A DNA stretch of 64,000 bases from Escherichia coli (GTDB lineage Bacteria > Pseudomonadota > Gammaproteobacteria > Enterobacterales > Enterobacteriaceae): NCBI RefSeq assembly GCF_044324785.1, contig NZ_CP172127.1. One strand, given 5' to 3'. Positions 55,601 to 58,600 of this stretch are shown piece by piece. The position numbers were made by a program. Position 1 is the first letter of the stretch. Every line of letters begins with the position of its first letter.

Positions 55601-58600
55601 GGATTGATACAAGGACACCGACGACTTTTTTAGAGCAGTTTAATGCTGTAAAAGATAAAAAGAAGGCATCTTATAAGAGATTTACAATTCTTCCATCCGG
55701 TGAAATTGTTGAATAGCGCATCCCTGCGCTATATTTTAAATAAACATAAGAATAAACATCAGAAGTTCTTCGTATCTGATACCATACTGATAGCCAGCAG
55801 GTTTAATAATAACCTGCCTTCCTGTGTAATATTCCTCGTCGTACCACTCTCCTGTTTCATTGTTTTTAACACTCCTAATCAATACCTCTGGAGCATAAAT
55901 ATCATCCCATTCATCATAACACCAGAACGCATAGTTATTAGGGTCAAGACCGTATTTTCTGAGAATATTACCTACAGTTTGTGCACCAACGCCGAAATGA
56001 ATCCGAGCGCCATCACTCTTGATCTTTACTGCATCTTTAAATTTAAACCTCCAGATATTTTCCTTTATTTCAAGCGCAGCAAGACGCTCTGATTCTGTTG
56101 TTTTCTCGTCAGCCTCAATACGCAATTTCAGCTCTTCATTCGACGTGTTGATACTGCCAGTACCAGCGTATACCTGTGACCATCGAAATGCTGATGTTCC
56201 GTTTGAGTTAACATTATCAACAGTTGGTTTTATAAGGCCAGAAAAATGAGTTTCAGGTGTATTAATATATGTATATGCACCTGCTGTACTACGAGTCCTT
56301 AACTCAAAGCTGTCTATATCAACACCAGTCCTACGAATTATAAGGAAGTTATTTCCTGCGGAACCAGTATCGGTTTGAGTGCTAACAGACAATCCGTTTC
56401 GTGTATCAATACGTATATTCTTCCCGTTCTCCAGCGAAGCAGAATTATGTAGATACAGCGAGTTGTCAGTGTAGAGATTGTGTTTACCTACATTGCTAAA
56501 TGTATAAGTATTGCTTGTGTTATCACTGTTCCTATGGAATTGCTGAAGAGTGTAGGCAGAAGATGCTCCGTATCCATCACAATGGAAATTTCTGCACAGC
56601 TGCAAATCGAATAACAATACGGTGTCAGCATTAATGCTCACATTATTAAAGCATGTTGCAAAGTTGGCACCATACTGTGAATTGGAATCGCCAATCTGTG
56701 CGCACACATCAAGCAAACCAAAAGTTACATTGGTAAAGTTATTTGCATCACCGGCGTCAAGAACAATCCCTTTCTTAGTCCCTGAATACCCTCTGGCAGT
56801 GCCGATCTCAACTCCCTGGAATGAACACACGCGAGCACGACTAAGCTTAAGACCAACCCATTCCAGACCATGATCGTAACCTTTTGCTGCGCGGTGAATA
56901 AACATACCATTCATGATGAGAAGGAATCTGTTATCAAGCCGTACTGGTTCAAGTTGGGCATTAATACCAACATTTGTGCATATACATTCACCATAAGCAT
57001 AACGATTCGTTTCAAATATACGATCATCAGCGTCGTAAATGCCTCGTAATGCCTTGGCGGCATCAATATTAAGCAATGTAAAATATGTCTTCTGCTTAAT
57101 TTCAAAAAAATTTGCAACATTATGCGTTGTGATATCACTCACACGCATTGATAAAATCCCCTCTTCTGGAGCGGTGCGAATGAATCCATCAAGGAACTGT
57201 TCATTATAACTTTTGGCTATCTGATAACATCCAACAGCATCAATGCGTTCGATTGTGAACTGCCAACTATCACCACAGTTAAAAGACCATCTCCAGCCGT
57301 ATTTCTGAGCGAATTCATCATATTCAACATTTGCAGGTTCAGAACAGAAAGATAAAAATCTAAATGTTGGTTTTGGCCTTAGATGGTTAATCCCGGAACC
57401 TCTTGGGGTATATATGGCATTATCTCCATTCCCACCTTTTGTTTTAACTGTAAGGTGACTTAAACCAAATTCAATATCATATTTAGTTGGTGCGGCGAAA
57501 ACAAAGCCGTCTTTTGGTGATGTGGTATTGTCAAACACAATAACCGTTTCACCCTGCCCATCACCGCACATATTTACTGGTGGTATATTAACGGGGCCAG
57601 TCAAACTATATGTTCCAGTTGGCACATATAGTTTTCCACCCTCTCCAATAGCATTTGCCGCTGCAATAAATGCCGCCGTATCATCGTTAACACCGTCACC
57701 TTTCGCCCCATAATGCTGTGGCGTAATTAACAGCATACGGTCAGAAAAAATCTCTGTCCTAAGTTGATCAGGATCGTATTTTAATACATTTGGAAAATAA
57801 AACTGCTGAGTGCCATATGCATCATATACAGCCATAGAATGGCCTTGCACGGTAACGAATTTGGCAATCTGTCCGTTATATACCGGATAACCAGCAGCGT
57901 TAATAATGATTGGTTGAGAAACAGGAACGTGAGAACCGTCTTCGTTCTCTACATAAACCGGAATCTGGTTTTCAGGATTTACCGGGTCAGTGTCAATTTT
58001 ACCGATATAAATTTTTCCATTAGCATTTGCTTTAAACGAGCGAGCTAAAGTGAATAACTGACTTGGTTGTGAAACAACAACATTGGCATTTATTGAATCT
58101 GTCATTTAATTTACTCCAGATACAAGGAATCGCCGCAGCATGGCTACGGTGAATTTTGGGCATAAAAAACCCAGCCGAAGCTGGGTCGTTGCGTTGGTTA
58201 TCTGTCAGTAGTTATGTACTGAAGGAGGTAATTCTTTATTCTTAAGTCTCATCCATGCGGAAATATTCGTTGGTCCGTCTGGCTCATTAATATCAACATC
58301 TCGTGTGTGATTGATTAAAACGTCTCTCGCCATTCCGATAACATACGAGAATTCATGACCGTAGTCGTAGCATCTGCCGGAATAGTTCGATTGAATTTGT
58401 TTCAGCGCCGGATACAGTTCGCGGAATAATGCCTGTGAGCGGTTGGCATAATCCCATAACCATACAAGGCTGTTTGCTTCTTTTGCAGAAAGCTCGTTGG
58501 TTTTCTTCTCTTGTTTGCCAATGAACTCACCTTCAAGCACTACCCTGTGGATGTACTCTACGGCCAGCGGGATTTGTTCAATTGAAAGTTCATCAATGCT

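Follow-up and report, generated by a model that had tools for sequence, protein, structure and literature searches.

The closest known system to the locus described here is CUS-3 of Escherichia coli K1, which pairs an endosialidase tailspike (siaK1) with a capsule O-acetyltransferase (neuO) in the gene order mnt-ant-tailspike-neuO-int and targets a group 2 capsule. Receptor-modifying conversion genes that act on O-antigens also lie nearby in P22 (gtrABC) and Sf6 (oac). According to the literature, the tailspikes of P22, Sf6 and HK620 target O-antigens. Here, we analysed a tailspike gene (positions 55736..58105, minus strand) in a 64,000-nucleotide stretch of E. coli DNA (RefSeq assembly GCF_044324785.1, contig NZ_CP172127.1; hereafter the window). 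It encodes the receptor-binding spike of a P22-like (Lederbergvirus-type) E. coli prophage and lies at the prophage end, after the mnt-arc-ant region and next to a convergent acetyltransferase gene. This prophage and CUS-3 are alike in being P22-like, in having the order mnt-ant-tailspike-acetyltransferase at the prophage end, and in carrying a hexapeptide-type acetyltransferase immediately downstream of the tailspike. Comparative analysis of sequences and genomes makes it likely that the tailspike targets one particular group 2 capsule (K antigen), the same class of target as in CUS-3, and not lipopolysaccharide (LPS), and that its neighbour is probably a capsule O-acetyltransferase.

We surveyed 5,426 complete E. 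coli genomes, 13 of which carry the receptor-binding module of the tailspike. The tailspike tracks one capsule type: region 2 of the group 2 kps locus of one carrier, NRZ14408, was present in 21 of the 5,426 genomes, and these include 10 of the 13 module carriers (Fisher test; P = 1.7e-23 per genome and 3.9e-19 after strain de-duplication). The insertion sites of the prophages vary (dacD, torT and the hsd side), and the hosts differ in O-type, source and country; therefore, the association is due neither to physical linkage nor to a single clone. On these comparative genomic grounds, the beta-helix of the spike would bind, and probably cleave, a particular group 2 (kps, ATP-binding cassette (ABC) transporter-dependent) K antigen. 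The acetyltransferase would O-acetylate the same capsule in the lysogen, i.e. a lysogenic conversion that alters the receptor, by the principle known from CUS-3 and, for O-antigens, from P22 gtrABC and Sf6 oac. A first-pass annotation of the window had stated that the receptor was different from that of P22 and unknown. This was correct as far as it went, and the association now narrows the probable receptor to a specific group 2 capsule instead of LPS. The new element is thus the likely receptor, which would be capsule and not O-antigen.

The convergent gene (55045..55716, plus strand) encodes a hexapeptide-repeat (CatB/Vat-class) O-acetyltransferase, as indicated by Pfam Hexapep, NCBIfam and PDB matches, and is the proposed capsule O-acetylase. 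It lies 19 nt from the tailspike stop codon, and its RefSeq homologues start 15 nt further in. The gene is present in 9 of the 5,426 genomes, all of which carry the NRZ14408-type kps region 2. In the window and in all nine E. coli copies it follows immediately downstream at the end of the prophage, abutting either the tailspike gene itself or a truncated remnant. It was absent from all enterobacterial phage records. A homologue with 56% identity likewise converges on a tailspike 33 nt away, in which the module (60% identity) is joined to another anchor domain. Further homologues (52–58% identity) reside inside kps-type capsule loci, including one in E. coli 2273-PO3, where they adjoin a protein of ~1,170 aa that is homologous to the 1,169-aa region 2 protein of NRZ14408. 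These results are consistent with a cytoplasmic enzyme that most likely O-acetylates the same capsule in the lysogen. The alternative that the acetyltransferase is unrelated cargo, i.e. a xenobiotic or antibiotic acetyltransferase hitch-hiking beside the tailspike, draws on its best curated matches (CatB, Vat and a phosphonate-associated transferase) and on its phage matches, which are Vat-like genes of Gram-positive phages. We consider this unlikely. Scores of 96–100 bits fall far under the CatB/Vat-family NCBIfam equivalog cut-offs of 300–350, with only the hexapeptide core and class-level similarity shared, and the pairing with the tailspike module is kept at 55–60% identity on a different phage backbone. 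In addition, kps region 2 itself harbours full-length homologues, and a 'vatD' acetyltransferase is likewise part of the capsule locus of K13 (PMC12887879).

The central part of the tailspike, from about aa 132 to 605 (56291..57712, minus strand), is a right-handed parallel beta-helix and constitutes the receptor-binding and putative depolymerase domain. Pfam PF12708 matched aa 131–200 as the N-terminal rungs of a pectate-lyase-like beta-helix (E 9.6e-11, above cut-off), and the 15-residue beta-helix hallmark motif falls within this match at aa 132–146, in agreement with a pectin-lyase-like parallel beta-helix fold. No Asp-boxes were found in the tailspike, even with a relaxed pattern, and resemblance to endosialidases (GH58, with a sialidase beta-propeller containing Asp-boxes) is limited to the stalk and chaperone. 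Hence, the first-pass annotation was right about both the hallmark and the missing Asp-boxes. Its term 'pectate-lyase-like' holds as a fold label only, a label that does not decide between hydrolase and lyase chemistry. Among 39 homologues diverging to ~25% identity, D279, D348 and E373 were invariant and D306 and E335 were at least 87% conserved; these five acids are spaced about one rung apart, with no mapping onto a known active site. We infer from this conservation that D279 (codon 57269-57271), D348 (57062-57064) and E373 (56987-56989; all minus strand) are candidate catalytic residues. Alternatively, the beta-helix might bind the capsule without cleaving it, as an adhesin-type spike, or might modify it (e.g. 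as a deacetylase or epimerase) instead of depolymerising it, and homology indeed assigns no catalytic residues. This is decidedly unlikely, however, because invariance of three acids on successive rungs across a family diverging this far is typical of catalytic grooves, and characterised podovirus tailspikes of the beta-helix fold are generally enzymes.

Other P22-like prophages provide the default expectation of a classical O-antigen tailspike as in P22, Sf6 and HK620, which would cleave the repeat of one O-serogroup while the neighbouring acetyltransferase modifies the O-antigen. This expectation is strengthened by the tight match of prophage tailspikes with host O-type reported by Pas et al. 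and by other CatB-related acetyltransferases in E. coli that, judged by chromosomal position alone, appear in O-antigen clusters. We located the rfb clusters of LSC52, 2018-10-1CC and NRZ14408 and used the wzy genes of O17/O77, O7 and O154 as queries. Five carriers were typed in this way: LSC52 and A10 belong to the O17/O44/O73/O77/O106 family, 2018-10-1CC is O154, and NRZ14408 and Br_112_kylling are O7. The lysogens do not share one O-antigen type, and with at least three O-types among carriers the hypothesis of a single O-serogroup was rejected. Two carriers do share the O17/O44/O73/O77/O106-family cluster, which has a base rate of 1.7%. However, near-identical modules (96–98% nt identity) are shared by hosts of O7, O154 and the O17/O77 family, for which the gene clusters point to chemically unrelated O-antigens; none of the remaining carriers was among the O17/O77-type records seen (~82 of the 94); and the capsule locus shows a far stronger association. 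An O-antigen receptor is therefore very improbable.

The mixed O-types of the carriers would also be accounted for if the spike recognised a glycan that most E. coli share (e.g. colanic acid or enterobacterial common antigen). All carriers examined have wca clusters, and the top PHROG family for the N-terminus bears the label 'colanic acid degradation activity', but this target is scarcely credible given that the PHROG match is limited to aa 2–196, outside the catalytic region, that there is no similarity to WcaM (BLASTP, E 1.4), and that a universal receptor would not give an association of P ~1e-23 with a capsule locus found in 0.4% of genomes. The colanic acid lead offered by the PHROG label was dropped after the WcaM comparison and a literature search that gave nothing specific.

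If the receptor is a group 2 capsule, its likely chemistry can be read from the kps locus of NRZ14408. Region 2, the serotype-specific part of this locus (WP_000836184.1), encodes a 1,169-aa protein and a 329-aa protein, and contains no precursor-synthesis genes. Among PDB entries, the 1,169-aa protein was related to those of Bcs3 alone (the Haemophilus influenzae type b capsule polymerase), matched through the ribofuranosyltransferase-phosphatase part (E 3.9e-28), and its N-terminal 420 aa had no PDB match. Family members elsewhere carry KpsC/S-type Capsule_synth domains, and a counterpart in a metagenomic capsule locus (L016), the region 2 of which had no megablast match in E. coli, is 70% identical. 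The Bcs3-like ribofuranosyltransferase-phosphatase module of this polymerase-like protein makes it probable that the capsular polymer contains ribofuranose, and the polymer may be of the ribofuranose-Kdo (Ribf-Kdo) type. The lack of precursor genes in region 2 would fit a polymer made from phosphoribosyl pyrophosphate (PRPP) and CMP-Kdo. The K13, K20 and K23 capsules are Ribf-Kdo polymers with one large polymerase and differ only in O-acetylation (PMC12887879). The NRZ14408 locus resembles this system in its small region 2 and its one polymerase of >1,100 aa with a Bcs3-like ribosyltransferase-phosphatase. O-acetylation by a Vat-type acetyltransferase is given as the sole cause of the serotype differences among K13, K20 and K23; the acetyltransferase lies in the capsule locus in that system and in the prophage here. 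In certain pairs of K types, the acetyltransferase has to be encoded somewhere other than the locus (PMC13171606). The introduction and results of PMC12887879 contradict each other on which of K20 and K23 is non-acetylated, and this assignment was not used. The second region 2 gene of NRZ14408 (locus L020, 18242-19231; 329 aa, WP_000028052.1) showed weak alpha/beta-hydrolase and tetratricopeptide repeat (TPR) matches only, and occupies the slot where related loci carry an acetyltransferase.

Several observations weigh against a capsule-specific tailspike with a capsule-modifying partner. Three carriers (Br_112_kylling, EC17CM13 and AR_0085) are without kps region 2; all three have only an 860-aa fusion form of the module, one copy of which is disrupted by IS4. 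Conversely, 11 of the 21 genomes with kps region 2 do not have the tailspike. The 64-kb window contains no kps genes, the capsule locus of its own host being outside the data. Comparisons aimed at a K-type name gave no match: the accessions were absent from the supplements of the K-typing paper, KrkA (the polymerase of the K13/K20/K23 system) was not in the list of homologues of the 1,169-aa protein, and no sequence link to KrkA was found. The acetyltransferase, being of the CatB/Vat xenobiotic class, could act on a small-molecule substrate instead. It has no detectable similarity to neuO (tblastn against the CUS-3 locus, E 7.3) and no phase-variation (tandem heptanucleotide) repeats, and it is convergent with the tailspike, whereas CUS-3 neuO is co-directional and phase-variable. 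Finally, for the C-terminal chaperone described below, Pfam PF13884 (Peptidase_S74) scored 19.5 bits on this sequence, just under the cut-off of 22.

The tailspike and acetyltransferase are best read as a non-orthologous counterpart of the CUS-3 arrangement. The two spikes are 75% identical at the N-terminus and 31% identical over the stalk and chaperone, but their central domains differ: a beta-helix without Asp-boxes in this tailspike compared with a sialidase beta-propeller in CUS-3. The target capsule would also differ from that of CUS-3, being apparently a ribofuranose-type polymer.

The tailspike gene is a single, intact open reading frame with an ATG start (789 codons plus stop), with the boundaries given in the first-pass annotation. 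By exact-sequence look-up, its product is identical to WP_395765666.1, 'phage tailspike protein [Escherichia coli]', and is thus already in RefSeq under a generic name. Sequence matches and a structure model agree on three modules: a P22/Sf6-type head-binding domain, the right-handed parallel beta-helix and a C-terminal intramolecular chaperone. Taken alone, the tailspike is an unremarkable modular representative of a familiar type. The head-binding (tail-attachment) domain, aa 1–118 (57752..58105, minus strand), would dock the trimer onto the tail hub. Pfam Head_binding (PF09008) matched aa 4–114 (E 1.4e-64; 215.8 bits versus a cut-off of 24), and a search against solved structures matched the N-terminus to Sf6 gp14 (7sg7, E 7e-61) and also to P22 gp9. 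The N-terminus is nearer to Sf6/HK620 (85–92% identity) than to P22 (~70%). With P22 gp9, Sf6 gp14 and the HK620 tailspike it shares this head-binding domain (70–92% identity), a trimeric parallel beta-helix design and a locus after ant, but there is no sequence similarity to them beyond ~aa 120, in agreement with the earlier statement that only the first ~110 residues are P22-like, and none of the three matched the C-terminal region. To our knowledge, the P22, Sf6 and HK620 tailspikes have no cleavable chaperone.

An AlphaFold2 model of the tailspike was built from a 44-sequence alignment and had a mean predicted local distance difference test (pLDDT) score of 84, with values >90 over aa 130–520. 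Low-confidence linkers were found at aa 110–125 (pLDDT <50) and aa 603–655. In Foldseek comparisons, the head-binding domain of the model matched that of P22 (1lkt) with a target-normalised template-modelling (TM) score of 0.83 and 75% identity, and Sf6 7sg7 with a TM score of 0.71; the chaperone matched 3gw6 (E 5e-8; target-normalised TM score of 0.46–0.49) and 4uw8 (E 3.6e-8). Structure prediction had been proposed in the first-pass annotation as a check on both folds, and the model, which matches 1lkt and the endoNF and T5 chaperones, upholds the beta-helix as well as the C-terminal chaperone. Low pLDDT and the boundaries of sequence matches place a flexible linker and module-exchange junction at aa 119–131 (57713..57751, minus strand).

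The stalk ahead of the cleavage site, aa 606–654 (56144..56290, minus strand), contains Asp630, Arg641 and Thr654 and is expected to form an intertwined trimer; it was delimited by End_tail_spike similarity, alignment with T5 pb1 and conservation. The C-terminal intramolecular chaperone (S74-type) spans aa 655–789 (55739..56143, minus strand) and is supported by PDB matches, Foldseek and conservation. Chaperone-bearing ends of PDB entries matched the tailspike C-terminus, namely the Klebsiella phage Kp7 fibre (7y5s, E 9e-17), T5 pb1 (4uw8, E 8e-12) and endoNF (3gw6, E 4e-7), together with the GA-1 neck appendage (3gud). Sub-threshold Pfam matches were to End_tail_spike at aa 615–654 and Peptidase_S74 at aa 655–719, and 28 of 44 aligned relatives of the tailspike matched PF13884 at E <= 0.001. 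The chaperone-like domain of the first-pass annotation is thereby borne out, although its size is predicted to be 135 residues and not ~150.

In T5 pb1, the Thr1263-Ser1264 bond is cut with Ser1264 activated by Lys1269, cleavage is coupled to correct trimer folding by Arg1250 of the adjacent chain and Asp1239, and a 133-residue chaperone is released along with the serine (PMC4690869). The tailspike aligns with pb1 without gaps at an offset of 609 (INTADARLK in the 4uw8 chain versus INTSNEELK here), such that T654, S655, K660, R641 and D630 align to pb1 T1263, S1264, K1269, R1250 and D1239, respectively. These residues are conserved in the family (T654 in 38/42, S655 in 41/42, K660 in 41/41, R641 in 35/43 and D630 in 37/44). 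The Ser-Lys autoproteolysis dyad that the first-pass annotation had suggested looking for is therefore present as Ser655 (codon 56141-56143, minus strand) and Lys660 (56126-56128, minus strand), and the putative autocleavage site (Thr654-Ser655, Lys660, Arg641 and Asp630) appears complete and conserved. By homology with T5 pb1 and endoNF, after trimer folding Arg641 of the adjacent chain and Asp630 would position the Thr654-Ser655 bond. Lys660 would then activate Ser655, and the chaperone would be cut away. The predicted products are a mature spike of 654 residues (aa 1–654) and a released chaperone of 135 residues (aa 655–789), compared with 133 aa in pb1. The chaperones of T5 pb1 and the K1F endosialidase (MEROPS S74) thus share with the tailspike the catalytic constellation, the spacing around the scissile Thr-Ser bond and a fold match, but they are attached to a different receptor-binding domain, and processing of the tailspike is a prediction.

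The tailspike is modular. Across E. coli genomes, the first ~355 nt of the gene recur on many other tailspikes, which match nt 1–355 only, while the part that starts at nt 392 is found, fused to a different N-terminus, in 860-aa 'GH28-related' proteins of another prophage type. In public data, the beta-helix and chaperone module is also fused to T7-type, TSP1/gp66-type and tail-collar-type anchors. An exhaustive search of 1.84 billion proteins returned 31 clusters (50% identity) at E <= 1e-30; therefore, the family is small. Both NRZ14408 and TUM9803 have the module on prophages of two different types. The 860-aa fusion genes retain an unannotated 3′ remnant of the acetyltransferase downstream in TUM9803 (locus L002, 8980-9232), EC17CM13, AR_0085, Br_112_kylling and the NRZ14408 chromosome, which indicates the direction of transfer, i.e. 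that the module moved out of the tailspike/acetyltransferase cassette. Among sequenced phages in the collection searched, Escherichia phage PSK1 (PP541512) was the only one with a spike covering both the beta-helix and the chaperone (aa 132–784, 56.8% identity). PSK1 is a lytic T7-like phage and its N-terminal anchor differs from that of the prophage tailspike; at 57% identity the two spikes need not share specificity, and a literature search found no publication on the specificity of the PSK1 spike.

Two further arrangements concern the cassette. In 2018-10-1CC, the torT site (locus L005, 5016-7354) holds an IS1-truncated 3′ fragment of the tailspike with an intact acetyltransferase; a separate full-length tailspike copy lies at 1835837-1838155, and the genome has no second copy of the acetyltransferase. 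On metagenomic contigs L014 and L015, a homologue of the acetyltransferase (62% identity) closes a P2-like prophage, where it directly follows the tail fibre and tail-fibre-assembly genes, which suggests that this type of conversion also exists on a myovirus backbone.

The surroundings of the tailspike identify the prophage type. The P22-type immI region (58205..59658) comprises ant (58205-59083, minus strand), arc (59152-59376, minus strand) and mnt (59404-59658, plus strand), as assigned by Pfam P22_AR_C/Bro-N, Arc and Repressor_Mnt, with the same gene order in LSC52 and CUS-3. Promoter-like and terminator-like sites are in keeping with the immI layout of P22. A terminator-like hairpin with a T-run lies between ant and the tailspike start (58168..58187, minus strand), and a hairpin with an 8-bp stem, terminator-like on the plus strand, lies between the convergent tailspike and acetyltransferase genes (55713..55732). 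The approximate prophage end, a shared cassette boundary, is at 54868..54877, the point at which three independent prophage copies cease to match; chromosomal E. coli similarity runs up to 54716, and the chromosome in the window is only ~97% identical to its best E. coli matches. Just beyond the prophage end, three large open reading frames (47632-53493, plus strand) make up an operon for type I restriction-modification; other E. coli genomes have the corresponding region annotated as hsdR, hsdM and hsdS. Between this operon and the prophage end, a 121-aa fragment (54290-54655, plus strand) with a weak PF00589 match represents the C-terminus of a tyrosine integrase, probably left behind by an element that occupied the site earlier. 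Inside the prophage, 51 nt after mnt, there is a 1,057-bp IS903-like (IS5-family) element (59710-60766) with terminal inverted repeats of ~18 bp and a flanking 9-bp target duplication, GTGCTGAGC (59701-59709 and 60767-60775), which looks like a recent simple insertion.

As judged from sequence comparison, it is the capsule association and the linked acetyltransferase that set this tailspike apart as a new form of the CUS-3-type arrangement. It is conceivable, albeit tentative, that the prophage CatB/Vat-class acetyltransferase creates a serologically distinct, O-acetylated, ribofuranose-type group 2 K antigen without a documented serotype, and thereby blocks the phage's own tailspike. If so, this would be the second E. 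coli cassette combining a tailspike with a capsule-acetylase conversion gene, after CUS-3/neuO/K1, and a concrete case of the 'acetyltransferase outside the kps locus' that a 2026 K-typing study invoked for genetically inseparable serotype pairs. If the capsule is indeed the receptor, the spike would be a ready-made depolymerase, maturing by itself, against an E. coli capsule type also found in ST131 and other clinical lineages, and would be useful for capsule typing, the design of phage or enzyme therapy, and glycan analysis. The locus is also a caution for pipelines that give every P22-like prophage tailspike an O-serogroup specificity. More broadly, capsule O-acetylation variants would then be prophage-encoded beyond K1, which bears on the K serotypes that are inseparable by their kps loci (PMC13171606).

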